DNA from: Leptonemataceae bacterium | Lineage (GTDB): Bacteria > Spirochaetota > Leptospiria > Leptospirales > Leptonemataceae | Direction of reading: 5' to 3' | Assembly: GCA_965227295.1 (NCBI GenBank) | Contig: OZ245742.1 | Coordinates: 480,001-544,000, forward strand | DNA: 64,000 bases | Part shown: piece by piece, positions 38,446 through 55,338 of the stretch | Position numbering within the stretch: the first letter of the stretch is position 1 | Layout: the number at the start of each line of letters is the position of its first letter | Notes under the pieces: generated by a model | The model's database searches: none | What the model saw: only the letters and a program-made list of their open reading frames with translations | What the model was told of the DNA's origin: nothing | Made by a program: the position numbers and the translations under genes

Positions 38446-39465
38446 ATGGATCGCCAACACAGAATCTCAGAACTACGCGAGATTGTTCGCGCGAATCCAA
38501 ACGATGTAGAAAACTGGCTGGAGCTGGGTCTTGCACTAACGCAAGCCGGGCTTTATGACGAAGGAATCCTGGCGCTGACCAAGGCCTATGAACTTGCTCC
38601 GCATAATGCTGAGATCGGAAATTGGCTGGCATATTCTCTGAACGAAAGCGGTCAGTTCAAGGAGTCCTTATCCATCTCAACAGCTCTCGTATCTCAAACA
38701 CAGTCCGCAACTGCCCTTTACTATATGGGTTGGTCGTTACGAGAGCTGGGAGAATGGGAAGCAGCACTCAAGGCCTTTGAGAAAGGCATTCAGCAGGAAC
38801 CGGAGAGTCAGAACCTCTTCGGCGCTGCAACGGTATTTATACATCAGGGACGTCATGCAGAAGCCGCAGAGTACTTACGGAAGGCTCTGCAAGTAGATGG
38901 GGGGGAGAATCCAGAGATACTCTACTTGCTTGCCATGTCGGAAATTGAATTGGGTCAGCGCGAACAGGCCGTACAAAGCCTGGAACAATGTCTACAGGCC
39001 GCCCCAGACCACATAGCTGCAGCCAATGAATTGGGTCTTTTGTATACACAAGTCAATCGCATCCCGGATGCTTTGACACTCTTGAATGATACTCTGAAGC
39101 GCGATTCTGAGCACATTGTGACCCTCAACAATCTCGGCTATGCCTATTTCCTGGCGAGGTTATATAAGAAAAGTGAATTTTATCTGCGAAAGGCATTAGA
39201 TCAAGATCCGGATTACTCCAATGCCCTTTATGGACTCGGCAGTGTCTATGCAGAATCCGGGAACTACGAGGCTGCCGTCATAGAACTGGAGAAACTGGTC
39301 TCCGTGGCGCCGGACTTCATCCCCGGCTGGATCAGCTTGATTAACAGCTATGTGCAGAATAAGGATAGTAGGGAAGCCTCGGCAACCTTAAAGCGAGCAC
39401 TGCAGAGACACCCGGAATCCGAACAATTGAAAGGCCTGTCGCTGGAACCGGATTCCCAAGACTGA
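38446..39465 (+). CDS. TPR protein, type A (candidate immunity)
   Basis: About 9 TPR motifs; starts 30 bp after the toxin stop; lower GC. Confidence 0.88.
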   Translation: MDRQHRISELREIVRANPNDVENWLELGLALTQAGLYDEGILALTKAYELAPHNAEIGNWLAYSLNESGQFKESLSISTALVSQTQSATALYYMGWSLRELGEWEAALKAFEKGIQQEPESQNLFGAATVFIHQGRHAEAAEYLRKALQVDGGENPEILYLLAMSEIELGQREQAVQSLEQCLQAAPDHIAAANELGLLYTQVNRIPDALTLLNDTLKRDSEHIVTLNNLGYAYFLARLYKKSEFYLRKALDQDPDYSNALYGLGSVYAESGNYEAAVIELEKLVSVAPDFIPGWISLINSYVQNKDSREASATLKRALQRHPESEQLKGLSLEPDSQD

Positions 39466-39491
39466 ACCTTGAGTCCCCATAGTGAACCCCT

Positions 39492-40505
39492 ATGGATTTC
39501 GATAGGCGCATTTCTAAACTGAGAAGCCGGCTACAGGAATTTCCGGATGATCCGGAAAACTGGGTCGAGTTAGCGTTGGCTCTCGGAGAAAGTGGTGACC
39601 ACGCTAGCGCCGCCTTCGCGTTTACCAAGGCAAGCGAATTAGCCCCGGATTCCACGGTTCTTAGACTACGCCTGCTGACATCGCTGCGTAACGCTGAGCA
39701 ATATGAAGAAGCAGTGGCGTTGGCTGACAAAATTCTGGCAGAACACGAGTGCCCGGACGCCACCTATATAAAAGCGTGGAGCCTGAGAGAACTCGGGGAG
39801 CTGGAAAAAGCACTCGATCTATTTTTATCCGGCATTAATGATTATGGAGATGGACGCAACTTTACGGGGGCTGGAACAGCACACGCCCGAATGGGCAACT
39901 ATGAAGATGCCCTGCGTTGCTATGAGAAGGCAATAGAGGTTGAGCCTGCAAATCTCTCCGACTCTGAATTTTTATATACTGTAGCCATTGCCAAAATCGA
40001 AACAAACAACCCGACAGAAGCAATCCAATTGCTTTCACAAGCCCTTACACTTGATCCAGAGCACAGGGAGGCGGGAAATGAATTGGGCAAGCTCCTGGCA
40101 TATGAAGGGAAATACGATGCGGCCATTCAAACTTTTCTCAGGGTTCTTGATCATTATCCTTCTGATTCTGTCACCTTAAACAACATCGGTCATGCATACC
40201 TTTATGCGGGAATGCCGCAGAAGAGCCTAACGTACTTTGACGAAGCGATTGAAACGGCTCCGGACTATGTAAACTCCAGATTTGGAAGGGGTTCCGCCAG
40301 AATCTCGATCCACGATTTTGCCGGAGCTGTAGAAGACTTTAAGACGTGCATTGAACTTATGCCTGAGGAGGAATCCGGCTGGATAAACCTGGCCCGATGC
40401 CAACTTGAGCTAAGTGACACAGAAGCCGCCGAAGCAACAATCCAGAAGGGACTGGAGCTACACAATGATGCGCAAAAACTAAGGAGCCTTCTTAAGTATA
40501 TTTGA
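39492..40505 (+). CDS. TPR protein, type B
   Basis: TPR motifs; paralogue of 42032 (shared LNN.xHAYLYAGMP.KSL.YFD..IE.APDY.NSRFGRG). Confidence 0.88.
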   Translation: MDFDRRISKLRSRLQEFPDDPENWVELALALGESGDHASAAFAFTKASELAPDSTVLRLRLLTSLRNAEQYEEAVALADKILAEHECPDATYIKAWSLRELGELEKALDLFLSGINDYGDGRNFTGAGTAHARMGNYEDALRCYEKAIEVEPANLSDSEFLYTVAIAKIETNNPTEAIQLLSQALTLDPEHREAGNELGKLLAYEGKYDAAIQTFLRVLDHYPSDSVTLNNIGHAYLYAGMPQKSLTYFDEAIETAPDYVNSRFGRGSARISIHDFAGAVEDFKTCIELMPEEESGWINLARCQLELSDTEAAEATIQKGLELHNDAQKLRSLLKYI

Positions 40506-40571: not shown

Positions 40572-41594
40572 ATGGATCGCCAACACAGAATCTCAGAACT
40601 ACGCGAGATTGTTCGCGCGAATCCGAACGATCCAGAAAACTGGCTGGAGCTGGGTATTACTCTGACTCAGGCTGGCATATACGACGAAGCGACGGTGTCA
40701 CTCACCAAAGCCTATGAGATTGACCCCGATCAGATAGAGGCTGGCTACTGGTTGGCTTACACGTTAAACGAAATCGGCAATTTTGACGAATCCTTGCGAG
40801 TATCCAGCGATCTCGCGGCGCGAATCGGGTCTCCCTCGGCTTTCTACTATATGGGCTATTCCCTCCGGGAACTGGGGCGATTCGATGCCGCGCTTAAAGC
40901 GTTCGAGGACGGCATACAAGCAGGACCGGATAGCCGGAACCACTTCGGCGCAGCGACAGTTTACGCTCGTCAGGGTCTACATAGAAAAGCAGTAGATCTC
41001 ATGCGACAGGCCAGGGAAATGGAAGGAGGCGAAAGTCCAGAATTGCTCTACACACTCGCCATGTCTGAAATTGAACTGGGCCAAAAAGATCGCGCAGTGA
41101 GCAGCCTGGAGCGATGTCTCGACTTAGCACCGGGCCACATATCTGCCGCAAATGAGCTGGGTCTTCTTTACGCTCAGGTAAACAGAATTTCAGACGCACT
41201 GAGCCTGCTAAATACAATTCTGCGCTACGATACTGATAACATAATGACGATCAACAATCTCGGATACGTGTATTACCTGGCGGGACTCTATCAGAAGAGC
41301 GAGATTTTTCTGAAAGCGGCGCTGGAACAAAACCCAAACTATCCGAATGCTCACCTGGGATTAGGTCTCGTCTACGAAGCAATGGATAACTATTCGGCTG
41401 CCGTCGCCGAACTTGAGAAATTTGTTGCGATTAATCCTGGTTCCGCCGATGGATGGGCCAGTCTGGTGAAAGCATACATGCGCAAGGGTGATCTCCCCGG
41501 TGCACGAGAAACATTGGAACGAGCTTTGCAACGTCATCCGGAATCCACGCAATTGCAGGAACTATTGTCGGACCTACGCGCCAGCGATTCATAG
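40572..41594 (+). CDS. TPR protein, type A
   Basis: Paralogue of 38446; first 53 nt identical. Confidence 0.88.
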   Translation: MDRQHRISELREIVRANPNDPENWLELGITLTQAGIYDEATVSLTKAYEIDPDQIEAGYWLAYTLNEIGNFDESLRVSSDLAARIGSPSAFYYMGYSLRELGRFDAALKAFEDGIQAGPDSRNHFGAATVYARQGLHRKAVDLMRQAREMEGGESPELLYTLAMSEIELGQKDRAVSSLERCLDLAPGHISAANELGLLYAQVNRISDALSLLNTILRYDTDNIMTINNLGYVYYLAGLYQKSEIFLKAALEQNPNYPNAHLGLGLVYEAMDNYSAAVAELEKFVAINPGSADGWASLVKAYMRKGDLPGARETLERALQRHPESTQLQELLSDLRASDS

Positions 41595-41636: not shown

Positions 41637-42002
41637 ATGAATACTGACTTCAACTCTCTGCCATGGCATGATGCCACGCTGCTATCCATAAGCATAGATC
41701 GCTCTGATCCGGGCCACATAGACACCGTCTCGCTCGCCGTTCATTGGCCGAATGGCAGCAAGAACAACGTAGTCTTTCAGGATTGCTACATGCTGAATGC
41801 CCGAATGAATTTCGGGGTCGTCGCGGCGGAGAGCATTCTGAAAGGCGAGCATCTGGACGACGACCCTGAAATCACTGCGATCAAGAATAGATGGGAGCCG
41901 CTGGGAGTTCCTTTGCATAATTTGAGTTGCTATAGAATCGTCACAAATTCTACCAACAGCCAGATCCATATCTATTCCCTATCATATGCGCTGACGGCGT
42001 AA
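41637..42002 (+). CDS. Small hypothetical protein, orphan immunity-like
   Basis: 121 aa, low GC, LPWHDATLLSISIDR N-terminus; inserted in the TPR array. Confidence 0.65.
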   Translation: MNTDFNSLPWHDATLLSISIDRSDPGHIDTVSLAVHWPNGSKNNVVFQDCYMLNARMNFGVVAAESILKGEHLDDDPEITAIKNRWEPLGVPLHNLSCYRIVTNSTNSQIHIYSLSYALTA

Positions 42003-42031: not shown

Positions 42032-43039
42032 ATGGACCGGCAAATTCAAGAACTACGAGACGCAGTTCGTCAGGATCCGAACGATCCGGAGAACTGGTTG
42101 GAACTCGGCATTGCACTTCGAGAGTCTGGAGACGCAGAGGAAGCGATACTGGCGCTATCGAAGGCGCACGAACTCGCGCCTGAACATGACTTAACGGCAC
42201 TCAATCTCGCGTTAGCCCTGGGAGACGTCGATCGGCATCAGGAAGCCATTCGTGTCGCGGATGGTATTCTCGGTCGCAAAGATTCTGCCGATGCCCGTTA
42301 TCTGAAGGCCTGGTCATTGAATCAACTCGGGCAGTCCCAGGAGGCCCTGGAGATATTCCTGCGGGGTATCCAGAGCGAAGGGGATGCACGCAGCCACTCG
42401 GGCGCAGCCTCGGCCTATGCCCGACTCGGACGGTATCGAGAATCACTCAATGCCTATGAGCATGCCCTCGAACTGGACCCGGATTTCAACGAAGACGCTC
42501 AGTTTCTGTACGGCCTGGCATTGGCTCAATCTGCGCTGGGACAACGATCTGTCGCGATAGAAACCCTCACCCGCGCCTATGCGATGGCACCCCAAAACCG
42601 GAGCATCGGCAATGAATTAGGCAAGCTTCTCGGGTTGAGCGGCCAGTATACGAAAGCAATCGAGGTCCTGACTGAGGTATCGGAAAATTTTCCTGACGAT
42701 TACTTCCCCCTGAACAATCTCGCGCATGCATATCTCTACGCAGGTATGCCGCGCAAGAGCCTCCCGTACTTCGACCGCACGATCGAACTCGCCCCCGACT
42801 ATCCGAACTCCCGATTCGGCCGCGGTGATGCCCTGATGCAAGTCAAAGACTACGGCAGCGCAATTGATGATTTTCTCCAGGCCACACGAATCATGCCGGA
42901 AGTCGTCTACGGCTGGAAAAGCCTTGTGCAATGCTATCTTGAGCTGGGAAAAGTCAATGAGGCAAAGTCCGCGCTCGGTGAAGCACTACAACTTCATCCG
43001 GATGCCCGGGACCTGCTGGACATGCAACAGATCCTGTAG
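42032..43039 (+). CDS. TPR protein, type B
   Basis: TPR motifs; paralogue of 39492. Confidence 0.88.
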   Translation: MDRQIQELRDAVRQDPNDPENWLELGIALRESGDAEEAILALSKAHELAPEHDLTALNLALALGDVDRHQEAIRVADGILGRKDSADARYLKAWSLNQLGQSQEALEIFLRGIQSEGDARSHSGAASAYARLGRYRESLNAYEHALELDPDFNEDAQFLYGLALAQSALGQRSVAIETLTRAYAMAPQNRSIGNELGKLLGLSGQYTKAIEVLTEVSENFPDDYFPLNNLAHAYLYAGMPRKSLPYFDRTIELAPDYPNSRFGRGDALMQVKDYGSAIDDFLQATRIMPEVVYGWKSLVQCYLELGKVNEAKSALGEALQLHPDARDLLDMQQIL

Positions 43040-43159
43040 CACTGAGACAGTTCGTTTCATCGGAGATCCTCGAATGGAAGCCGGGTGTTGGCTGGTACCG
43101 CGAAGAGAAAGGCCGTATCATCTTGCAGTTGGTCAAGGGCGAGAAGCAGCTCGTCGACG

Positions 43160-43580
43160 TCCACCAATCCGGGGAGCCCACCCAAGAACTTCCCCTACCT
43201 GGGCCCAGATCCTTAATTTTTCGCGAGCATTGTCTTGCAAAAATTCATTCCCCAATCCATTCTGTGCTTTCCGCGCTCAACAAGCGCACCGGAATCTCGG
43301 TTCGTAACCGAACTCCGGCCATCCGTTCTTTAACAGAACGCAACGATTCTCGAACGGGTCCGTTGCGTAAAAGGCAAGCCCGCCTGGGCCGATACAAGCA
43401 ATTCCGCACACGTGTGCGGAATTCAAGGTCGCGCGCATCGCCACTGCTAACCTGTGAATAACAAGCGTTAGGGACACGCAGGGTGGCGAAGCCAGTCTCG
43501 CGCAGCGAGACCGAAGCGAAGCGGAGCCCGGAGTGGCCCGACGGCCCGCCGCCTCCGCGGCGCGGCGGGCCGGAACGCCC
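43160..43580 (+). repeat. ~420-bp structured non-coding element, copy 1
   Basis: Direct repeat of 49555-49974; multiple hairpins including the palindrome aattccgcacacgtgtgcggaatt; REP-like 3' end. Confidence 0.92.
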
Positions 43581-43608
43581 AATCAAACATCGTTACTGCT
43601 TCACCTCG

Positions 43609-46600
43609 TTCAGCTCCAGGCCGAAGAAGCCCGGCAACAGACCATCGACATGCTCGTGGGTATGGTGACGCAGGACAACGTCCAGGAAGAACGCCAGGAG
43701 ATCGATTACAACCCGTACGAGGACGTGCCGGTGTTGCTGCGTCCGGAGTGCTGGGAGAACGTCAAAGCGACGCGCCTCGAAACGAACGAGGAGATGCAGG
43801 AACGCATCGAGAACCAGCGCGCGCGAAACTACACCGACGTCAAAATCGGCAAGGACGGCACGATCATTGCCAGCCGCGCGATCAAGACCGGCGAGGCCGT
43901 GTGGAACGGCGGTGATCTTACGAACTCGGACGGCTACAGCGCCGCCTACGAAACCCAGACCGTCACGATTCGCCCGCCCCAGGCCATCAAACTCGCGAGC
44001 GGCGGTGATTTGTTCGCGAGCTGGGACTACGACGAGCTACAAGAATCACATGAAGAGAACTTAAGCGACTTCTACGCCGGTCTGGATCGCAAGGTCCAGG
44101 CGGCCCAGGGTCAACTCGCAAACGCGAACGAACTGTTCACCGCCCGCGAAACGGCCTTCCAGCAAAACGCGGCGAGCCAGGCGCAGACGTGGTCCATGAT
44201 CAAGTCGCTTGTGACTTCGATGATGGGCGGCATGGATCTCGGCTCCGCCCTCGTGGATTACGCGAAGAATCAGATCATCGGCCAGGTGGCTTCGCAGATC
44301 GAAACGATGACCGGCATTCCCGCGGGTTTCATGTCGAGTATTCTCGGCGGCGCAAATATTGAGCAGGCGATGCAATCTTACGCCTGGCAGGTCGTGGGCA
44401 GTCACATCGATGAAGTCACCGGCATCTCGGGCCTCGGCTCACAACTTACGGGCATGTTGCAAAAGCAGATGGCAAAGAAGGCCGCGCGCAACGGACCCAT
44501 GGGCAAACTCGCAAACAGTATGGCCGCGATGACGATGGGCGGCGGTTTCGGCGCGATGGCCGGCTTTATGATGGGCGGGCCGATGGGCATGCTTGCGGGT
44601 GCGGCGATGGGTGCGGCTACCGGCGGCGCGATGAACGAGGCCGGCGCGGCCGGTTTCGCGGCACCGATGGCGGATGTGTTTTATGAAAACCCGATGCTGA
44701 TGGATGCGACGGCCTACGCAACGGCCAGCGCAACCGGTAACCCTGGCGTCTGGTACGGCTACCAGGCGATGAAGGGAAGTTACATGGGCGGCACCGTTGG
44801 TGCGCTAACGAGCATGGCGGACTCGGCGCTGATGGCGACGCAGTTGGTGGGCGTGGATGCGAGTATTTCGTATACGTTCGATGACGGCTTCGGTGGAAGC
44901 CTGGGTTTCGGCGGGGAATACGGCAGCGTTGGTGTGAGTTACAGTGAGCGGGACGGCATGGGGGCGTACGGGCGTCTGGGGTCCGGCGACGGCTTGAGCA
45001 TTGGGTTTAATGTGAGTGAGCACGGCGGGAATTCGATTAACGCCGGATACAGCAGCGGCGGTGTGAACCTCGGGGTGAGTTATAGTGATCAGACCGGCTT
45101 TGGTGCGAATGCTGGGTTTGGTGGTGAAATTGCGGATGGCTTAAACGGCAATCTCGGGTTGAGCTGGAGTGAGACGGAAGGTGTTGGAGCGAATGCGGGA
45201 TTAACTTACGGTAACAGTGACTTAGGGAATGCCATGGGCGCGGGCCTGAGTTATACGCAGAACAGCGGACTCAGCGCGAACGTGAGTCTGGCCGGCGCCA
45301 CACTGGCCTCGATCGCCCAGGGCGGAAATTTGCAGTTTAACAGCAATTTCGCGAGCGATGCCGGGCGCGGGGTGTTGAAAGAAGAGTACGTTAAGCAACG
45401 GAAAGAAGAACGCCTCGATGGTCTGGAGGAAGCGCTGGATGACGCCGGTGAGCTGACGGAAGAAGAGAAGCAGTTTTTGAAAGAGAATCCTGGTAAACGA
45501 CAGGCGTTTTTGGAGAAGAAGGCGGCGGAGATTAAGGATCGCGTTGAGAAGCTTGGTGATAAGTCCTCGGAAGCGGATGATTACGGCAGCTCCTGGGATA
45601 ATCAAGGCGGCCTCACAGGGCTCCTCAGTTCGTTCGACCTTGGCAAAGATATTCTCAATTTCGCGAATGAGATTACGGGCACGAATAGCGATAATACCGG
45701 TTTCGTTGACTCCGAAGGTAAGTTCCACGTTCGGACTTGTTTTGTCGCCGGGACCCTGGTTCGTGTACGCAAAGATGCTCCTGGCGCTTTTGAAGAAGGC
45801 GGAGAATGGTTTAAGAAAATTGAGGATGTGGGTGTCGGCGATCATGTCCTGAGCTGGGACGAAAAATCCGGTGCCGTTAGCTTCCAGCCCGTGACGGAGC
45901 TGTTCCGACATGATGTGGAATTGATCTTCGAGATCGCGTACGTAGACGGCACGATAATTGAGACGACGTGGAACCACCCGTTCTTTGTGCCGGATGTCGG
46001 TTGGGTGGAAGCACGCCACCTTCGCGGCGGGGATCGCTCTTTGTCTGCGGCCGGGGAGATGCTGGTGATTGCGAGCGTGCGCGAAATGCGGCGTGAGGCG
46101 CGGGTATTTAACTTTGAGGTGAAGCGGAATCATACTTATTTTGTAGGGCCAGCGGGCGTGCTGGTGCATAACTATGATTTGCGGACCGGAACCGTGGATG
46201 AGGAACGTGACCTCAAAGAGGTCCTTGCCAAAGTTAATGAAGAATTGGGCCTTGATTATACTTTAGAGGAACTGGCCGATTTGAATGGTATTGAGCCGCA
46301 AGGTCATTGCCTGACATATGCCAGTGTCACATGCGATTATCCTATAGTTGAGGGACAACAGATCCTGACTGAGGAGCAATACAAGGACTTATCAGAAGAT
46401 GAGCGCACGAGCTTCTTTGATAACCCTAAGAATCCTAAGGAAACTGGAGTCTACCAGGTCACCCTAAGTGCAGGCGCGATGTTTTTTTCAGGGCATTACT
46501 GGGACATCGGGTTTGTCGATGAAACGACACATATTGGACGATTCACACAATCGCGGGGGCTACCGATCCAATCATATACTCGCACTATTGGCGAGGGCGG

Positions 46601-46952
46601 AGATATTACGGCGGGTATGACCATTCAAATGGTGGAAAACACAACAATTGAGGATTTTGTTTTTGGGAACGAACTATTCATGACTTCAGAAGTCGATGGC
46701 GGCCTTCCGTTCTGGAATCCAGGATTGATTATGCGTGCGAATAATAGCTACGCGGGTTGGCTCGCGAATTTCGGCCTGACCCCAGGCCTCGGAGTAGCGG
46801 TATCAAGTAACCAGACACCGGACCTGGCTGGAAATACAACTGCGCCCCTTGGAACAGGATGGTGGCCGGGTGGCCCCGCGACAATTTCAACGGAGCATTG
46901 TATCCTGAGTACGTCTCAAAAAACGGGACCAATAAGCGTGGATTGCCTTTGA
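43609..46952 (+). pseudogene. Orphan (5'-truncated) toxin cassette: duplicated mid-region, different HINT, LysM-like domain, new C-terminal domain
   Basis: 43609-~45270 is nearly identical to 34451-~36112; no signal peptide; HINT CFVAG (45738) to LVHN (46172); frame intact to the stop. Confidence 0.85.
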
Positions 46953-46965
46953 TTCGGTTGCATGA

Positions 46966-47322
46966 ATGATGAACCTGGGGACAAGACGAATTCTATGCAT
47001 TACGGGTTTTGGATTGAGCCTGTTTCTAGCCAGCCAGTGGGCTTCTCCGCAGCAGATTGAGACCAATGCATTACTTGTCGTGCCAGGTGGCTATTGTATC
47101 GTCGGAGCATACGAATACAATGGGATACTAGAGAAAGAACAGGCTTTCTCTTACTGTGCTTCAGGCGTGCTGCAAGGTGGCGATGGGCACGGGATTCGAG
47201 AGTATCATAAGATTGCGGAAATCTGGGTTCCTTATCCAAAGGTTGTCGAAATCCGTGATTTCCCGGAGTGCTTACATGTACTAGCCAACACCCGATCTGA
47301 CACTCCTGCCTGTCAGATATGA
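46966..47322 (+). CDS. Candidate immunity protein of the orphan cassette, 3' end interrupted by IS481
   Basis: Starts 13 bp after the cassette stop; N-terminal hydrophobic helix; removing the IS rejoins the frame to 48444-48492. Confidence 0.7.
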   Translation: MMNLGTRRILCITGFGLSLFLASQWASPQQIETNALLVVPGGYCIVGAYEYNGILEKEQAFSYCASGVLQGGDGHGIREYHKIAEIWVPYPKVVEIRDFPECLHVLANTRSDTPACQI

Positions 47323-48431
47323 TCAGGTCGATACCTGATGCTGTTTATGCAGCATCTTTTCACGCGCCACGGCGATGGATTCAGCGAACGTTTGCGCCGG
47401 CGTCTTGCCGAAGCAGTACTTGCCGCTGTGCGTCCGTTCCTGGTTATACTCGAGCATCCATTCATCCAGATCGGCTTGCAGCTCCTCGATGCTTGAGTAA
47501 AGTTTCTTGCGAAACGCGACGGCGTAGAATTCTTCCTGAATCGTCTTGTGAAAGCGTTCGCAGACGCCGTTCGTTTGCGGATGCCGCGCTTTGGTTTTGG
47601 TGTGATCGATGTCCTCCATCGCGAGGTACAACTCGTACTCGTGATTCTCCGGCTTGCCGCAGTACTCCGTGCCGCGATCGGTGAGCACGCGCAGCAGCGG
47701 GATGTTGTAGTCCGCGTAGAACGGCAACACACGATCGTTCAGCAAGTCGGCCGCCGTCAGTGCGTTCTTGCGATCGTAAAGTTTTGCAAAGCCGACCTTA
47801 GCGTACGTGTCGATGAAGGTCTGCTGGTAGATCCGCCCCACGCCCTTGATATTGCCCACGTAATACGTGTCCTGCGAGCCCAGATAGCCGGGGTGGTGCG
47901 ATTCGACCTCGCCGTGCGCTTCTTTGTCCTGGCGGCCTTTCTCAAGCGCCGCGACCTGTGCCTCGGTGAGAATGATCCCCTCTTGCGCGACGCGGGCTTC
48001 CAGGGCCTTCAGACGCTTCTTGAACGTCTCCATGTCGTGCCGCAACCAGACCTGACGCACGCCGCCCGGTGAGATCGAAACGCCGCGCTTGCGCAGCTCA
48101 TTCGACACGCGCAATTGACCGTGCGCCGGCTTCTCGAACGTGAACTCGATCACCGCGTCTTCCACATCCGCCGGAATCCGGTTCTTCTTGTTCGGCTTGC
48201 GCCGCGTGAGATCCTTCAGGGCCTCTTCGCCTCCGGTCTCGTACAACCGCTGATACCGGTAGAACGTATCGCGTGATACGCCCATCACCCGGCAAGCCTC
48301 TGCAACGTTATTCAGAGTACGGGCCAGCCTCAAGATGCCCACCCGGTGCTTTACGATTTTTTGTTCTGCTGTCATCTCTTTCCTCCGATACAAATTATAT
48401 CGGAGTGTCAGATGGAATCTTGACTATTTCA
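47277..48431 (-). mobile_element. IS481 family insertion sequence
   Basis: Imperfect 30-bp terminal IRs TGTACTAGCCAACACCCGATCTGACACTCC / TGAAATAGTCAAGATTCCATCTGACACTCC; gcttaca repeated at 47270-47276 and 48437-48443. Confidence 0.9.
47323..48375 (-). CDS. IS481 family DDE transposase
   Basis: NVAEACRVMGVSRDTFYRY HTH, HPGYLGSQDTYYVG, LTDRGTEYCG, PQTNGVCERFHKT. Confidence 0.96.
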   Translation of the reverse strand: MTAEQKIVKHRVGILRLARTLNNVAEACRVMGVSRDTFYRYQRLYETGGEEALKDLTRRKPNKKNRIPADVEDAVIEFTFEKPAHGQLRVSNELRKRGVSISPGGVRQVWLRHDMETFKKRLKALEARVAQEGIILTEAQVAALEKGRQDKEAHGEVESHHPGYLGSQDTYYVGNIKGVGRIYQQTFIDTYAKVGFAKLYDRKNALTAADLLNDRVLPFYADYNIPLLRVLTDRGTEYCGKPENHEYELYLAMEDIDHTKTKARHPQTNGVCERFHKTIQEEFYAVAFRKKLYSSIEELQADLDEWMLEYNQERTHSGKYCFGKTPAQTFAESIAVAREKMLHKQHQVST

Positions 48432-48707
48432 AGTGAGCTTACAAAGCGTCTTGCTCAAGCACGCTTTACCGGTTGGCGCCTTATTGGAATAGCAGATCTG
48501 ACGGCGTATCCAGTTTCATTACACATATCCAGTATAGCTTTAGCTACTCTTGAAAAAGAAGGAACGACACTGACATTGTTGTTTGAAATTTCTCATAAAA
48601 GGGCTCTCCGAATTCGAGCGTTTGCAGCTGATTTTAGCAATCAAACGCATTTTGTAGCATCGGAGGGGCTCTTCTACCCATGAGACGGCCAGAGATCTCG
48701 TGCAGTT

Positions 48708-48760
48708 TTACGCCACTTTCCTTAATTTTTTCCCGGCCATTTTCTTGCAGAAATTCATTC
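48708..48760 (+). repeat. Partial third copy of the 5' (promoter-like) part of the 420-bp element
   Basis: ttacgccactttccttaatttttt...cattttcttgcagaaattcattc matches ~49594-49646 and ~43211-43250. Confidence 0.7.
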
Positions 48761-48942
48761 TAAAGTGCGACTAGTATATTTCATCTCTGAACAAATGGAG
48801 AAAGGTGTACTTATTGAAAAAACACAGATACTTACTTTGCATGGCGACAGGCTCCAGAGGCTGGAATCATATCCGGGAAATTTTGGAGGGGCCAGTGCTT
48901 ATTTCATGATCCCACTCGTTCTCTTGGGTCAGAGCGAGAAGG

Positions 48943-49392
48943 GTGCTAAGGAACCATAACGTGACGCTCAAAGCATCCCGATTTTGCTTCTTTATTGGTT
49001 TGGGTCTTGTTTTTACGGGCATAGTATATTTCCTCCAAGGCTTGCGGACGGCAGAAGTGCAAAGTCCCGAAAGCCTTCTGTTGCAGCCCGGAATTTACTG
49101 CGTTTTCCAGTCTGGCAAACTGCCTTCGCAGGGCTCTCAATTTTGTATGAAAGGTTACTGGAACAAGAGCTATGGAACTCTCTACTACCATCATACACTG
49201 CTTGTCATTGTGCCGCAGGTGTGGCCCGGGAGGCAAAGTCGGATCGGAAGGCAGATTAAGCACGAGCCTCTTTATGTCAGTGCGTCTATGTATCATTCTG
49301 GGTTCGGTCTGTCGATTCTCGTTCTGGGGCTTTTCTTGCTGAGGCGAGGGTATGAATTTTTTAAGTGGCTCCTCATTCGGCTACTTAGCTGA
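48943..49392 (+). CDS. Small membrane protein, probable paralogue of the 46966 gene (orphan immunity-like)
   Basis: LLLQPGIYCV...FCMKG versus LLVVPGGYCI...YCASG; low GC; start may be 48961. Confidence 0.6.
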   Translation: MLRNHNVTLKASRFCFFIGLGLVFTGIVYFLQGLRTAEVQSPESLLLQPGIYCVFQSGKLPSQGSQFCMKGYWNKSYGTLYYHHTLLVIVPQVWPGRQSRIGRQIKHEPLYVSASMYHSGFGLSILVLGLFLLRRGYEFFKWLLIRLLS

Positions 49393-49554
49393 GGATAACG
49401 TCCCGAATCTTTCGCGAAAAGGTGGGTTCTCCTCACCTGACCTCCGGCGATCATTTGTTCCTTCAGCACCTCCCGCAACAGGTCGATGTTGAGATACTTG
49501 CGTGAACTCCAGTTCGTCGCCGCCACATGCCGCGCCGCGACCAACGCCAGGCCA
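49393..49554 (-). mobile_element. IS256 family remnant (transposase C-terminus and right end)
   Basis: DGLALVAARHVAATNWSSRKYLNIDLL resembles IS256-family transposase C-termini; IR-like end ggataacgtcccgaatctttcgcgaa. Confidence 0.65.
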
Positions 49555-49974
49555 TCCACCAATCCGGGGAGTCCGCCCAAGGACTTCCCCCACTTACGCC
49601 ACTTTCCTGACATTTTTCGCAAGCATTGTCTTGCAAAAATTCATTCCCCAATCCATTCTATGTCTTCGCGCTCAACAAGCGCGCCGGATTCTCGGTTCGT
49701 AACCAAACTCCGGCCATCCGTTCTTTAACAGAACGCAACGAATCCCGAACGGGTCCGTTGCGTAAAAACAAGCCGCCCTCGCCCGGCGTTAGCAATTCCG
49801 CACACGTGTGCGGAATTCAAGGTCGCGCGCATCACCACTGCTAACCTGTGAATAACAAGCGTTAGGGACACGCAGGGTGGCGAAGCCAGTCTCGCGCAGC
49901 GAGACCGAAGCGAAGCGGAGCCCGGAGTGGCCCGACGGCCCGCCGCCTCCGCGGCGCGGCGGGCCGGAACGCCC
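49555..49974 (+). repeat. ~420-bp structured non-coding element, copy 2
   Basis: Direct repeat of 43160-43580; 3' third essentially identical. Confidence 0.92.
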
Positions 49975-49977
49975 AGA

Positions 49978-50071
49978 GAAGTCACCGGCATCTCCGGCCT
50001 CGGCTCGCAACTCACGGGCATGTTGCAGAAGCAGATGGCAAAGAAAGCCGCGCGCAACGGGCCGATGGGCA
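49978..50071 (+). pseudogene. 94-bp internal fragment of the toxin gene
   Basis: EVTGISGLGSQLTGMLQKQMAKKAARNGPMG; matches 35254-35347. Confidence 0.9.
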
Positions 50072-50209
50072 CCTTACCAGGCATCAGTCTTTTCTTTTCT
50101 CCGACGAAACTCGAAAGTACCGAAAGATTGACGTCCACGAAACCGTAGCACAAAAGATCCATCGGCGCGCCGATGAAGCCGTTGCCACGCCGAAGGAGAC
50201 GAACACGAA

Positions 50210-51648: not shown

Positions 51649-52221
51649 ATGCGGAAGATCCTGCTCCTCGTCGCCGCGGCGCTCACGGCCGCCGTCTCCC
51701 TCGTTGCCGACTACGGAAGCTCCCGCTACCTCAATCACGACTACAGCGTCTACGTACCGGCCCATCCGGAGACCGTCGCGAGTTTCATCCTCGATCCGTC
51801 CCGGCAGGCCGAGTGGGTCCGCGTGCCGCGCTTTCGTCTACAGCGGGTCGAGGTCGTCGACGCCGACGCCGGCCAATTGATCTACCACCTCAATCCCGAA
51901 TCCCCGGGGCCCGGCACGCCTCCGAACGTTGCGGTTCCCGTCGAAAGCCGACGCGTGGATCTGCCCGGACGCGTGCGCATTCTCTTCATATTACAGTATC
52001 CGGGCGGACCGAACGGCGAGACGATGCTGGTCTATCAGTTCCAGTTAAAACAGGTCAACGATCTCACCTACGTGAACCTCCTGTTAAGTGAGGACCAGAA
52101 GGAGTACGCCCTGGCTTACAAGATTCTGCAACGCAAGCCACGCCTGGACGAACTCGAACCGGCCGGCCGGGCCACTCAGAAAAATCTGCTGCGCATCATT
52201 GAAGCCGGAGCCGCGCGGTGA
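51649..52221 (+). CDS. Membrane-anchored SRPBCC/START-like protein (pair 2)
   Basis: Signal/TM, then YSVYVPAHPETVASFILDPSRQAEW; stop overlaps the GT87 start. Confidence 0.55.
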   Translation: MRKILLLVAAALTAAVSLVADYGSSRYLNHDYSVYVPAHPETVASFILDPSRQAEWVRVPRFRLQRVEVVDADAGQLIYHLNPESPGPGTPPNVAVPVESRRVDLPGRVRILFILQYPGGPNGETMLVYQFQLKQVNDLTYVNLLLSEDQKEYALAYKILQRKPRLDELEPAGRATQKNLLRIIEAGAAR

Positions 52222-53516
52222 ACGAAGTCCCGAACAAAACCGTGCGCCCCCTGGACGTAATCTTGCTCATCGCCTGCGGGCTGATCGCGCTCTCCGCCAT
52301 TACGCATCGTTTCGCCACGACGTTCATGGGCGGCCAGCCGGACTTCATCCCCGTCTACGTCGCCGCACAACTCTACAATCGCGGGGACATCGCGGCGATC
52401 TACGATCACACACCCTACGGAACGCACAAGGCCGACGAGTGGGTCGAGGTGGAAAGCCAGGTGCCTAACGGCAACTGGCAGACGGTTTATCCGTACGCGC
52501 CGGTCTATCTGCTGCCCGTCGCGGCGCTGGTACAGTTCGTCAGTTATCATACCGCGGTCATCGTGCTCTACAGCTTCAACGCGGCCCTGGTGCTCGGGCT
52601 CTCCGTGGGCCTGGCCTTATATCTGCCGTTGCCGAACATTACGGCCCGGGCGGCCCTGGTCATCTTTCTCTGCACGGCCCATGCCGCGGTGAACGTGCTC
52701 TGGCTCGGCCAGAACTTCATGGTCTGCCTGCTGGGACTCGCGCTCTTCGGACGGGATTATCTGCACGGACAAACCTGGCGCGCCGCGCTCTGGTTTTTAC
52801 TGGCCAACGTTTCGAAACCCTGGGCCGCCGCGTTTCTCCTGTTGCCGTTCCTGCGCCGCGACTACAAAAGCACCGCGCTCTACGGCGGCGCGTTGCTGTT
52901 CTTCTTTGGCGTCCAGTACCTCTGGCAACCCGAGCTCGTACAGGGATACATCGAAATCACGCGATCGCATACGGGCATTACGATTCTGGCCGCGAACAAT
53001 CACAGCCTCTCCGCCGGACTCACGCGTTTGCTGGTCCCGGGCTGGACCGCGTTCTACGACTGGACCAACGCCGGGGCGGAGTTTTTCAGCGCGAAGTTCA
53101 TTCGCTACGCGCTGATTCCGCCGGTGGTGCTGGTCGGCTGGATCACCCGGGACGATCGCCTGCGCGCCCATGCCACGGTGCTCACGCTCTTTTTACTCGG
53201 GAACGTATTCTGGGATTTTTACGGCCTGCTCATGTTGCCCTTCGTCATGTACACGATCGTCGAAACCAGACAGCCCGCCTACCGCGTATTGCTTCTGATC
53301 GGCGTGTTCATCACCTACTGGCTTTCCCACATCGTCGTGTATCAAATCGCCGCGGAGACTTTGCTCAGTCGCGTTAGCTTACGCCAGGCAGAAGTTACCG
53401 TCGCACTCTACTCATTGGTACCCGCCGCGCTCTACGGTTTCTCGTTCGTGCATCACATCCGGCGGAGCGGCAAACTCAACTGGCGCGAGCGCCTCTTTGA
53501 TTTTCGGTCCGCATGA
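52218..53516 (+). CDS. GT87-like glycosyltransferase (pair 2)
   Basis: PDFIPVY, YPYAP, LGQN, KPW, NHSL, FWDFY. Confidence 0.8.
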   Translation: MNEVPNKTVRPLDVILLIACGLIALSAITHRFATTFMGGQPDFIPVYVAAQLYNRGDIAAIYDHTPYGTHKADEWVEVESQVPNGNWQTVYPYAPVYLLPVAALVQFVSYHTAVIVLYSFNAALVLGLSVGLALYLPLPNITARAALVIFLCTAHAAVNVLWLGQNFMVCLLGLALFGRDYLHGQTWRAALWFLLANVSKPWAAAFLLLPFLRRDYKSTALYGGALLFFFGVQYLWQPELVQGYIEITRSHTGITILAANNHSLSAGLTRLLVPGWTAFYDWTNAGAEFFSAKFIRYALIPPVVLVGWITRDDRLRAHATVLTLFLLGNVFWDFYGLLMLPFVMYTIVETRQPAYRVLLLIGVFITYWLSHIVVYQIAAETLLSRVSLRQAEVTVALYSLVPAALYGFSFVHHIRRSGKLNWRERLFDFRSA

Positions 53517-54061
53517 TGCAGCGTTATCTGCCGACATACCTCATCGTGCTCGCCGTCTGCGGTGGCACCTACGCGGTGACGAACTACCAGCAGGCCGGTA
53601 TGTTCATGGATCGCCGGGTCTACGCCGATGTCGCACCGGCCGTCGTCGCGGATACGATCTTCGACGTACGCACGCACCGGAACTGGCTGCGTATTCCGGA
53701 GCATACGATCACGAGCGCCGCACGTACCGAGGCCGGGCACGGCGTCGATTACACCCTGGCACCGAACGACGGCGGGGCGGAAATTACGGCGCGGGCGGAG
53801 CTCCAGGCCATCAACGAGGATCGACACCACATCGCACTGATCCTTCCCGTAGCCGACCGGCGCTACGCCTACCGCTTCGTACTCAAGGCCGTGGGCGAGC
53901 GCACCGTCATCCAGATGCTGCTCAGTGAAGACCTGAGCCGCACGTCCGCGGAGCGCCGGTTGTTTCCGCATCTCGTTTTGCCCCTGCTCGAAGACGTCAC
54001 CGAAGACAGCCAGAACGCCCTGCTGGAATTCCTGGCGACACGCTCCGGAGACAACGAATGA
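53513..54061 (+). CDS. Membrane-anchored SRPBCC/START-like protein (pair 3)
   Basis: TM, then RRVYADVAPAVVADTIFDVRTHRNW; translationally coupled on both sides. Confidence 0.55.
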   Translation: MMQRYLPTYLIVLAVCGGTYAVTNYQQAGMFMDRRVYADVAPAVVADTIFDVRTHRNWLRIPEHTITSAARTEAGHGVDYTLAPNDGGAEITARAELQAINEDRHHIALILPVADRRYAYRFVLKAVGERTVIQMLLSEDLSRTSAERRLFPHLVLPLLEDVTEDSQNALLEFLATRSGDNE

Positions 54062-55338
54062 GCGCGCAATTCCGTCAGAACGCGTTCTTGCTGGCGTGCG
54101 TACTCACGGCCTTAGCTCCGTTTCTGTACAACTTAAGCTACTCCCGCAGCGTCGGCCAGACGGACCTCGTGCCCGTCATCACCGCGGCGCACCTCTTTAA
54201 CGCGGGGGAGTACGCCGCCATCTACGACCACGCCCCGTACGAAAATACCACGCCCGAGGCCTGGATCGCAGTCGAAAAGACGCTGCCCAACGGCACCTGG
54301 CAGACGGTCTATCCGTACACCCCGGCCTACCTGCTGCCGTTCGCGCTGCTGGTCCGTCTGTTCGAGTACATGACCGTCGTACAAATCGTATTTCTCCTGA
54401 ACTTAGCGATCGTCGGCGCCGGGGCCGTCCTCGCCGCGCGTCGGCTGAGTGATCGGCCGCTGGTCCAGGGCCTGGTCATCTGGTTCATTTGCTCGTCCAC
54501 GGCGGCCGGCGCGCCGGTAAAACTCGGACAGAATTTTCTCATCTGTGCGGCGGCGCTCTACGGATTCACGACGGCCTACCTGAACGATCGCCGCGGCCGG
54601 GCCGTGCTCTGGTTTCTCATCGCCGCCGCGGCGAAACCCTGGGCCGCCGCGTTCTTAATGTTGCCGTTTCTGCGCCGCGACTACAAAAGCACCGCTCTCT
54701 TCGCCGGAACGCTCTGCGCTTTCGTCGGCGCCCAGTATCTCTGGAACCCCGAACTCTTTCACGGCTACATTCACATCACACGCTCGCATACGGCGCTGTC
54801 GATTCTCGCCGCGAACAATCACAGCCTCTCCGCCGGACTCACGCGCCTGCTCACTCCCGGCTGGCCCGCTTTTAACACCTACGCAAACGCCGGCGCCGAA
54901 ATGCTCGCCACGAAACTCATTCGTTACGCGCTCATCCTGCCGGTCATTGCGGCCGGCTGGATTGCCCGCCATGATCGCATCCGGGTGCAGGCGACGGTGA
55001 CGGTGATCTTTCTGCTCGGCAACGTGTTCTGGGATTTTTACGGCCTGCTGCTCATGCCGTTCTTTTTACTGACGGCGCTGGAAACGCGACATCGCGGCGC
55101 GGCCGTCCTGTGGTGGCTGCTCGGTTTCGCGACGTTGTGGATCTGGCACGCGCACATCTACGAGGCCGCCGCCCGACACCTGGTGTATCGCATGGAACTG
55201 CGCAGTGTCGAAATCATTGTGGCGTTGTACTCGCTGCTGCCCGCGGCCCTTTATCTGGGCATGTTCGTCGAACAATGCCGGCGCAACGACGTGTTTTCAC
55301 GGGGCTGGTTGCAGAGATTGTTTGTATTGCGAGATTAA
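54058..55338 (+). CDS. GT87-like glycosyltransferase (pair 3)
   Basis: Close paralogue of 52218 (KPWAAAFL.LPFLRRDYKSTAL, ILAANNHSLSAGLTRLL). Confidence 0.8.
   Translation: MSAQFRQNAFLLACVLTALAPFLYNLSYSRSVGQTDLVPVITAAHLFNAGEYAAIYDHAPYENTTPEAWIAVEKTLPNGTWQTVYPYTPAYLLPFALLVRLFEYMTVVQIVFLLNLAIVGAGAVLAARRLSDRPLVQGLVIWFICSSTAAGAPVKLGQNFLICAAALYGFTTAYLNDRRGRAVLWFLIAAAAKPWAAAFLMLPFLRRDYKSTALFAGTLCAFVGAQYLWNPELFHGYIHITRSHTALSILAANNHSLSAGLTRLLTPGWPAFNTYANAGAEMLATKLIRYALILPVIAAGWIARHDRIRVQATVTVIFLLGNVFWDFYGLLLMPFFLLTALETRHRGAAVLWWLLGFATLWIWHAHIYEAAARHLVYRMELRSVEIIVALYSLLPAALYLGMFVEQCRRNDVFSRGWLQRLFVLRD

Follow-up and report, generated by a model that had tools for sequence, protein, structure and literature searches.

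A composite hairpin-and-repeat module at the left border of truncated toxin cassettes in a Leptonemataceae genome

Introduction

How do 5'-truncated toxin genes come to lie one behind another downstream of a full-length toxin gene, and how are the small genes behind them expressed? Orphan toxin/immunity arrays are widespread, and both the origin of their 5' truncations and the expression of their distal immunity genes are mostly unexplained; features of arrays of orphan toxin C-terminal (CT) regions are described in passages of PMC3150448 and PMC4287609. We address the question at one array in a bacterium of the spirochaete family Leptonemataceae, using a window of 64,000 nucleotides (nt) that comprises bases 480001-544000 of its single 5.94-Mb contig (OZ245742.1, ~60% G+C). 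An earlier reading of this window, here called the sequence-only reading, had singled out a ~420-bp structured non-coding element in front of each of two truncated toxin copies and had proposed that it acts as a cassette leader, either as a promoter with a structured RNA or as a recombination site. We find that the element is a composite of two parts, more probably a junction module than one RNA gene, and that the 3' end of its second part, a repeat found throughout the genome, is the recurrent exact left border of truncated toxin genes.

Results

The module consists of a hairpin-rich part and a genome-wide repeat

The two copies in the window, copy A (43160-43581) and copy B (49555-49975), are direct repeats with 91.7% identity over 423 aligned positions, and the hexamers, hairpins, 24-bp palindrome and GC-rich end by which the sequence-only reading had described them can all be located (Table 1). 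Part 1, of ~230-290 bp, is edged on the left by TTGCAA-17-CAT(A/T)CT, followed by four to six independent hairpins and the palindrome; part 2 is a single copy of the 122-nt GC-rich genome-wide repeat. The GC-rich end of both copies, ...GAACGCCCA / ...GGCCGGAACGCCCA, has its last base at 43581 (A) and 49975 (B).

The palindrome occurs nine times in the 5.94-Mb genome, eight times perfectly and once with one mismatch, and alignment of the nine sites shows that the whole unit, from ~10 nt upstream of TTGCAA to the repeat end, forms a family. Subfamilies can be distinguished: copies A and B, and seven others (C-I) at 768k, 2.286M, 2.363M, 2.367M, 2.377M, 2.381M and 5.008M. Copy E (2.363M) is without the repeat, its toxin sequence being fused 5 nt into the expected repeat start. 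A covariance model of the hairpin/palindrome part retrieves exactly these nine copies from the genome, and all nine full modules sit in five orphan TIGR04388/PT-HINT arrays in the orientation of the toxin, which bears out the earlier view of a discrete, structured non-coding element tied to orphan cassettes.

The 122-nt repeat, in contrast, yields 128 BLAST pieces, which occur in either orientation, and the 3' end is intact in 47 of these. An alignment of 52 pieces of at least 85 nt makes a hairpin-forming structure visible, with short imperfect inverted ends of the form GCGTy.../...ACGC (in some copies TTCTTCGCGT / ACGCCCAAAAGAA), and the repeat is matched in 13 of the 40 related genomes searched. 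The unit that the sequence-only reading had treated as one element is not homogeneous, its last 122 nt being this repeat. The scatter of an ordinary miniature inverted-repeat transposable element (MITE) or repetitive extragenic palindromic (REP) sequence, which had been named as grounds for abandoning the idea, describes the repeat but not the hairpin/palindrome part, which is found only in toxin arrays. A partial third copy, also noted earlier, is present at 48708 before a small open reading frame (ORF), but amounts to only ~53-70 nt of the promoter-like region (83% identity over 53 nt).

Sequences related to either part also occur by themselves. A separate ~1.2-kb repeat, at ~5237100-5237770 and five to seven related places (e.g. 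38988-39631 and 5697357-5698001), contains a sub-family of the GC-rich repeat with a CTAAC/GTTAG hairpin in front. At genome positions 2279300-2279325, at the far end of the 2.28-Mb array and ~100 nt upstream of the start of a 1065-aa (amino acids) efflux-pump-like gene, a variant 26-bp perfect palindrome, AATTCCGCCACCGCGGTGGCGGAATT, combines the arms of the module palindrome with another centre and may be an operator-type site of wider use. Apparent remnants of palindrome half-sites near copies F and H were dismissed as not significant, the motif GGAATTCGCG being found 43 times elsewhere in the genome.

The repeat 3' end is a recurrent left border of truncated toxins

The toxin family to which the arrays belong comprises ~15 full-length paralogues plus fragments in this genome. 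The main toxin of the window matches NCBIfam TIGR04388 ('Lepto_longest') in its N-terminal region (E 1.7e-86) and carries a pretoxin-HINT domain (Pfam PT-HINT) at aa 1337-1414 (E 3.9e-14). Five loci share one layout, in which a full-length toxin gene is followed by small genes, by the module or the repeat alone, by a 5'-truncated toxin and by small genes again, repeating; in the window the order is main toxin, TPR genes, copy A, orphan frame, small ORFs, an IS481-family element, copy B and a toxin remnant.

At 9 of the 47 intact repeat 3' ends, toxin homology on the same strand starts -1 to +8 nt away, toxin homology as scored with six toxin queries making up 37 intervals, or 1.57% of the genome. 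Seen from the toxin side, our own classification yields 17 5'-truncated fragments, including that behind copy C, of which 12 start no more than 25 nt from the end of a repeat or module, two lie further off, at 113 and 272 nt, and three (132661, 3134239 and 5098431; possibly not orphans) have no repeat nearby. Behind copy C lies a glycine-rich frame of toxin type, which the six queries do not score, and in copy F, where a group II intron lies within the repeat, the toxin tract resumes 24 nt past the repeat end. This recurrence of the repeat 3' end as the exact left border of truncated toxins is our firmest result and suggests that the toxin genes were joined by a process linked to this end.

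The toxin positions that are joined vary. Homology resumes at 43609 behind copy A, after a 27-nt filler and at the main-gene equivalent of 34451, and at 49978 behind copy B, after 2 nt and at the equivalent of 35254, just as the sequence-only reading had placed them. On the main gene these start points are nt 1853 and 2656, and those of the 2.36-Mb array are nt 1805, 3058, 3277 and 3285. Fillers at the junctions measure 2-27 nt, with a possible GAAG microhomology. By our count there are ~8-9 distinct repeat-end/toxin junctions, two of which recur (that of copy D equals 2279752, and 2282162 equals 2289573); a single duplication is insufficient to explain them, as had been argued from the two window junctions.

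Homology tracts of orphans to their own main gene show 77-95% identity over 1.5-3.3 kb, as exemplified by copy A (1689 bp aligned with main-gene nt 1853-3539, 93.5%), copy F (3340 bp, 95.4%), copy E (1517 bp, 90.2%) and copy G (1886 bp, 76.8%); behind copies B and H, toxin remnants of 94-153 bp are left. At the 12 orphan junctions examined, neither a start codon nor a Shine-Dalgarno sequence is conserved, and two of these junctions contain stop codons. With their long tracts and no translation start the orphans are therefore classical silent cassettes, and the small ORFs behind them are putative immunity-type genes. The possibility that the repeat supplies a start codon, in a translational fusion, was discarded: besides the missing conserved start and the two stops, all three frames are used.

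The intron of copy F has a second location. With its 471-aa reverse transcriptase and the 5' sequence GTGTGCCCGG..., it occupies 2367840-2369727 in module F and 2020602-2022484 in an unrelated repeat copy, inserted in the repeat between ...GGAACG and CCCA (ACG/CCCA), and the foot of the hairpin with which the repeat ends appears to be its homing site.

Conserved hairpins and a promoter-like edge

In comparisons across subfamilies (A vs C, A vs G, B vs I) identity is 38-49% in the promoter-like segment and 40-45% in the leader, yet the palindrome is kept at 24 of 24 positions. Invariant in all nine copies are TTGCAA, the P1 loop CAACA, the loop GAAC, TCTTTAACAG, GAACGG and TTGCG. This pattern of conservation in the hairpin/palindrome part suggests a function. 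Covariation was scored on a hand-drawn structure of seven helices in the nine copies, with 500 column shuffles as control: 93.5% of cells pair and seven pairs show double (compensatory) changes, values that none of the 500 shuffles reached, and sliding the partner strand lowers pairing to 29-50%. Over nine related sequences we regard this as supportive, not as proof. The palindrome shows no covariation within this genome, which fits sequence recognition. As to the strand, RNAalifold energies do not separate the two (-81.09 on + vs -81.26 on -), whereas folding z-scores favour the + strand (-4.6 and -4.8, compared with -2.95 and -3.7 for the - strand); copies C-I contain 27 G-U cells and no A-C cells, a count partly biased by the drawing of the helices on the + strand.

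Conservation starts ~10 nt upstream of TTGCAA, and the spacing to the -10-like hexamer (CATTCT, CATACT, CATTAT, CCTACT or CAAACT) is gapless in 9/9 copies although the spacer itself has diverged. Judged by its motifs, this left edge looks like an outward promoter. The sigma70-like segment of the sequence-only reading gains from the invariant TTGCAA and the fixed 17-nt spacing, but the match is weak and the consensus scan made no call, the TTGCAA/CATTCT pair of copy A agreeing with the consensus at 7/12 positions against a threshold of 9.

Other readings of part 1 were considered and rejected. A sigma-54 interpretation of TTGCA fails by eye, there being no GG 10 nt upstream in the nine copies; a small ORF in the leader is not conserved between subfamilies; a minus-strand terminator at hairpin P5 would depend on a T-rich tail present in copies E-H only; and an origin of the leader as the main toxin's own 5' region found no model match upstream of any full-length toxin gene.

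Relatives in other genomes

No described family was recognized in the element at the outset, and none has emerged: Rfam at gathering thresholds gave no match in the whole window, and relaxed searches of 43100-43700 gave RAGATH-28 at best (17.1 bits against a threshold of 45.3, E 1.4), followed by ncS037 (E 9.1). The exact 24-bp palindrome has no match in 185k species genomes, its 20-mer core occurs in three metagenome contigs of which only the hairpin fits the model, and the covariance model found nothing at E <= 0.01 in 150 other genomes of the order, searched with stricter filters. In two genomes of the same genus, all 23 toxin matches fall in open frames of 1423-2768 aa, and no orphans were seen.

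A pattern of the palindrome arms with a free centre is found at 2279300 in this genome, at two sites each in genomes G014 and G061 (another genus) and once each in G151 and G027; a reversed-pattern control gave no matches. In the stems of both G014 sites a C-G pair is replaced by G-C, a compensatory change, and the flanks CAATT...AATTCAAG are those of copies A and B. Each site is preceded by a TTGCAC at a distance of 190 nt, and one of them has the 11-mer TCTTTAACAGG. Both also lie 25-35 nt inside one end of a four-copy ~1.9-kb repeat, pointing outward; on its opposite strand the repeat carries the gene of a distant IS3/IS481-like DDE transposase (NCBIfam scores below cut-off). The repeat has no evident terminal inverted repeats, and at its palindrome-side end coincides with the first 14 nt of repeat-like sequence. 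The palindrome is thus linked to a transposase at 2/2 sites in G014 and at 0/9 in this genome. That the element might be the end of an insertion sequence (IS), which had been named as an outcome unfavourable to a cassette leader, is accordingly borne out in part, as a possible origin, by way of the G014 repeat, but not as a present linkage in this genome.

A long 5' region rich in hairpins characterizes the G014 repeat (C25:21564-23440 and three other copies), and some copies also have a duplicated 27-nt motif at the other end. The repeat may be an undescribed IS type.

Exchange among copies

The copies are mosaics. Within arrays the repeats are identical (A-B at 117/117 positions, G-H at 124/124) while their leaders agree at 87-93%; one junction is shared by D and 2279752, whose repeat bodies differ; and the distribution of two terminal-hairpin variants, like that of the repeat bodies, is discordant with leaders and junctions. 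Identical repeats and discordant variants therefore indicate exchange within repeats.

An idea modelled on the omega-RNA guides of TnpB/IscB was abandoned, since neither TnpB nor a Y1 transposase is present and fillers separate the would-be scaffold from toxin sequence. A minus-strand ORF (49622-49293), considered as a transposase remnant, has no family match, and compared with the G014 transposase it was equalled by 155 of 500 shuffles. The genome contains ten reverse-transcriptase genes.

Discussion

We tentatively propose, with a rough probability of 0.42, that the element is a junction module derived from a mobile element, whose end truncated the toxins and which now provides a portable outward promoter or leader together with homology for recombination. 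We infer that a mobile element would have contributed both parts with its non-coding end, the outer tip of which would have been joined to internal toxin positions by insertion with adjacent deletion, or by illegitimate joining or breakage at the terminal hairpin; this would have removed the toxin promoter and N-terminal half while leaving 3' cassettes with long tracts of homology to the main gene. Reading outward, the module would set off transcription anew, across the untranslated toxin fragment and on into the small immunity-like genes. Its copies, being direct repeats at the borders of cassettes, would offer homology for excision, duplication and reshuffling, and the toxin tracts would allow the main gene to swap its C-terminus. 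The original idea of a cassette leader persists in this proposal through the covarying hairpins and the promoter-like edge, but has to be amended in that the junction-forming part is a generic repeat.

A number of observations weigh against the proposal. Four orphan junctions have the repeat without the leader, so that an orphan can be made and kept in its absence. The inner boundary is common to seven copies, which fits the spread of one unit by recombination or duplication rather than repeated independent insertions of part 1. The family is known from one genome, and the covariation comes from nine related sequences in two or three groups. The hexamers match the sigma-70 consensus at 7-8 of 12 positions, and none reaches the scan threshold of 9; no terminator, ribosome-binding site or start codon lies downstream of the module, and an RNA from the putative promoter would have to traverse an untranslated stretch of 0.1-3.4 kb. 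The resemblance to G014 is weak beyond the palindrome and the sequence that flanks it (16.9 bits with the full-length model and little else in MAFFT), and one of the two G014 copies leads nothing, being directed at the 3' end of an oxidoreductase gene that converges on it. Neither a linked recombinase or HUH/RAYT transposase, which the sequence-only reading had suggested looking for, nor TnpB was found by genome and array searches: Y1/HUH/RAYT (PF01797) and TnpB (PF07282) have no match in the 5.94-Mb genome, the former in a search whose control matched in 6 of 14 genomes; four tyrosine recombinases (PF00589) are present, none beside a module-bearing array; no serine recombinase scores over cut-off in the genome; and tblastn with the G014 transposase gave no homolog here. 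These searches gave no candidate enzyme for the joining.

The repeat-only junctions and the single inner boundary of seven copies also suit a simpler account, in which part 1 is functionless passenger DNA that happened to lie beside the first repeat-mediated deletion or duplication joint and was copied as the arrays grew. The arrays are rich in other mobile DNA (IS481, group II introns), the family is limited to one genome, and the same-genus genomes have the toxins with no orphans among their 23 matches, all of which a neutral scar would accommodate. It has more difficulty with leaders that have drifted to 40-45% identity and yet retain the palindrome at 24/24, invariant loops, spacing and stems with double changes, a pattern hard to obtain without selection unless gene conversion was very patchy. 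We consider this account unlikely, though serious enough to be kept in view.

A second alternative gives the module a function at the RNA level, either as a stand-alone non-coding RNA of ~300-390 nt or as a cis-regulatory leader (by processive antitermination or by sensing of a ligand or protein) tied to toxin/immunity expression, with the last hairpin of the repeat as its 3' end or stabilizer. The promoter-like edge, the G-U pairs biased to the + strand, the covariation, the invariant loops and the strong folding z-scores would all be expected of such an RNA. Some bacterial group II introns choose sites after terminator-like hairpins, and the presence of the intron just 3' of the terminal hairpin in two copies may mean that this hairpin ends transcripts. 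Against this stand the lack of any Rfam match and of a U-tract after any hairpin, the failure to find a relative in 150 other genomes of the order, which argues against deep conservation, and a palindrome that, having no covariation, is equally suited to sequence recognition; furthermore, the hairpins are independent 'beads' with no long-range pairs. A dedicated RNA seems to us rather unlikely.

One could go further than our preferred reading and suppose that the module is a switching device, in which transcription across the hairpins and palindrome, or a protein bound to the palindrome, triggers recombination between neighbouring modules, the formation of cassette circles and their exchange with the expressed toxin; this would amount to a chromosomal exchange system for the 3' ends of polymorphic toxins. 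Such a device might be a domesticated mobile-element end that follows a logic like that of integrons or of pilin/vls silent cassettes while being unrelated to both. In the spirochaete Borrelia, extragenic repeats border silent antigen cassettes and guide recombination into the expression site; those cassettes, however, belong to a different gene family, have no known sequence relation to the present ones and serve a different purpose, antigenic variation. We hold such a switch to be improbable.

The palindrome, read as 9-6-9, could also be the core site of a recombinase that moves toxin cassettes in an integron-like manner, an explanation that we think has very little going for it. It is perfect in 8/9 copies including its symmetric centre, direct repeats bracket each cassette, and arrays end in a module followed by a short toxin remnant, as site-specific recombination might leave them. 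But unlike at an integron attC site the boundary lies outside the palindrome, the toxin junction being 158-183 nt away at the repeat end with fillers of 2-27 nt; there is no adjacent IntI-type recombinase, the tyrosine and serine recombinase searches described above offer no candidate by the module arrays, and palindrome half-sites are not enriched. The variant palindrome by the efflux-pump gene and the related hairpins elsewhere rather fit a protein- or hairpin-recognition motif of wider use. Finally, a mis-assembly in which both window junctions are false joins between repeats is hardly credible: in two runs the short-read contigs stop at 43255 and 49651 without bridging the repeats, but such breaks are expected at repeats, the genome is one 5.94-Mb contig, and 13 junctions at five differently flanked loci show this architecture.

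Among known systems, the orphans resemble those of cdiA-CT/cdiI, rhs-CT and, in Neisseria, mafB-CT, which likewise are 5'-truncated, lie downstream of a full-length gene with which they share a homology tract, lack a start and are followed by small genes; MafB-CT cassettes begin with an intein-like (HINT-type) region, here PT-HINT. They depart from known toxin orphans in that a repeat end caps 12/17 truncation points and a hairpin-rich module caps 9. Our literature searches turned up no paper on a conserved element at orphan 5' edges, and none under TIGR04388. In E. coli EC93, orphans rely on the main promoter, as stated in passages of PMC3150448, whereas here the putative module promoter would serve genes behind untranslated fragments.

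The closest functional analogue of the proposed working would be PeSL of T4-type phages, for which PMC2839356 describes a sigma-70-like promoter with stem-loops at cassette borders, recombination between copies and mini-circles. PeSL, however, is a phage element, much shorter, and its promoter and terminator activity was tested, while the present module is a chromosomal ~400-bp unit with a palindrome and a REP-like repeat, known from its sequence. In its GC-rich hairpin repeat of ~122 nt, short, imperfect inverted ends and occurrence in both orientations, part 2 is reminiscent of REP sequences, bacterial interspersed mosaic elements (BIME) and MITEs. REP sequences lie at duplication join-points in Salmonella, but we know of no description of REP sequences as enriched by their 3' ends at toxin truncation points, and unlike REP sequences that have a RAYT, the repeat has no RAYT/Y1 transposase or autonomous partner identified here. 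The missing TnpA (Y1) and TnpB partners likewise set the module apart from IS200/IS605 palindrome-associated transposable elements (PATE) and from an omega-RNA scaffold. IS ends with outward promoters are well known, and the outward-pointing palindrome just inside a transposase-bearing repeat end in G014 resembles an IS3/IS481-like IS end, a linkage not seen in the present genome.

If the module does act as an outward promoter and a recombination handle, it would tie mobile-element ends directly to the way in which silent cassettes are made, expressed and shuffled, in a spirochaete lineage that has been little studied. As a mere scar, it would still record gene truncation mediated by repeat ends at 12-14 independent or propagated junctions.

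Features of the window and its surroundings

Table 1. Positions of the features discussed, in window coordinates.
Feature	Position	Strand	Remarks
Full-length main toxin gene, 1938 aa	32599-38415	+	ORF; TIGR04388 N-terminal region, PT-HINT, variable C-terminus
Four tandem TPR-repeat genes	38446-39465, 39492-40505, 40572-41594, 42032-43039	+	Between main toxin and copy A
121-aa ORF amid TPR genes	41637-42002	+	From ORF list
5' extension	43160-43234	+	Only in copies A and B (77% identical); absent from the other seven family members
Promoter-like segment	43235-43263	+	TTGCAA 43235-43240, 17-nt spacer, CATTCT 43258-43263
Hairpin P1, loop CAACA	43272-43288	+	
Hairpin P2	43289-43318	+	
Hairpin around invariant TCTTTAACAG	43325-43339	+	
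Hairpin P4, loop GAAC	43338-43368	+	
Perfect 24-bp palindrome AATTCCGCACACGTGTGCGGAATT	43400-43423 (copy A), 49794-49817 (copy B)		
CTAAC...GTTAG hairpin	43447-43471	+	Bridges into repeat; common to second sub-family of genome-wide repeat
GC-rich REP/MITE-like repeat, ~122 nt	about 43461-43581	+	Three hairpins, closed by GCGTT...AACGC
27-nt filler	43582-43608	+	Between repeat end and toxin homology
Orphan toxin cassette after copy A	43609-46952	+	PT-HINT kept, C-terminus differs from main toxin
118-aa ORF directly after orphan	46966-47322	+	No family match
IS481-family insertion sequence	47277-48431	-	Transposase 47323-48393
Partial third copy	48708-48781	+	Promoter-like region only, upstream of small ORF starting 48796
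Copy B	49555-49975	+	Extension 49555-49630, TTGCAA 49631-49636, CATTCT 49654-49659, repeat 49855-49975
Terminal 99-bp toxin remnant after copy B	49978-50076	+	Main toxin aa 886-918, 97% protein identity

The orphan behind copy A is a 1139-aa open frame that corresponds to main-toxin aa 618-1487 followed by another C-terminus. None of the toxin C-terminal domains matched a Pfam family over cut-off, the best sub-threshold match being to a glutamine-deamidase toxin in orphan I (E 0.0016). The 118-aa ORF may, from its position alone, have an immunity role. Upstream of copy A, the four TPR-repeat genes are mutually paralogous, with 335-340 aa each, and these genes or the 121-aa ORF among them may be immunity, chaperone or accessory genes.

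The IS481-family element has six genomic copies, two of them within toxin arrays; the second of these belongs to the array at 2.36 Mb, where module G follows ~0.9 kb downstream of it. In short-read contigs, the copy in the window has a depth ~5x that of its neighbours. One short-read contig of run X2 passes from the left side of copy A into the right side of copy B at 43287/49708, with 24 other letters, by eye still capable of forming a hairpin, in place of hairpin P2; a related sample may contain another variant copy, or a recombinant. Beyond the 99-bp toxin remnant the sequence is unrelated and unique, and two paralogous genes of ~430 aa (52218-53516 and 54058-55338) with 72-78% DNA identity to each other follow downstream of the array.

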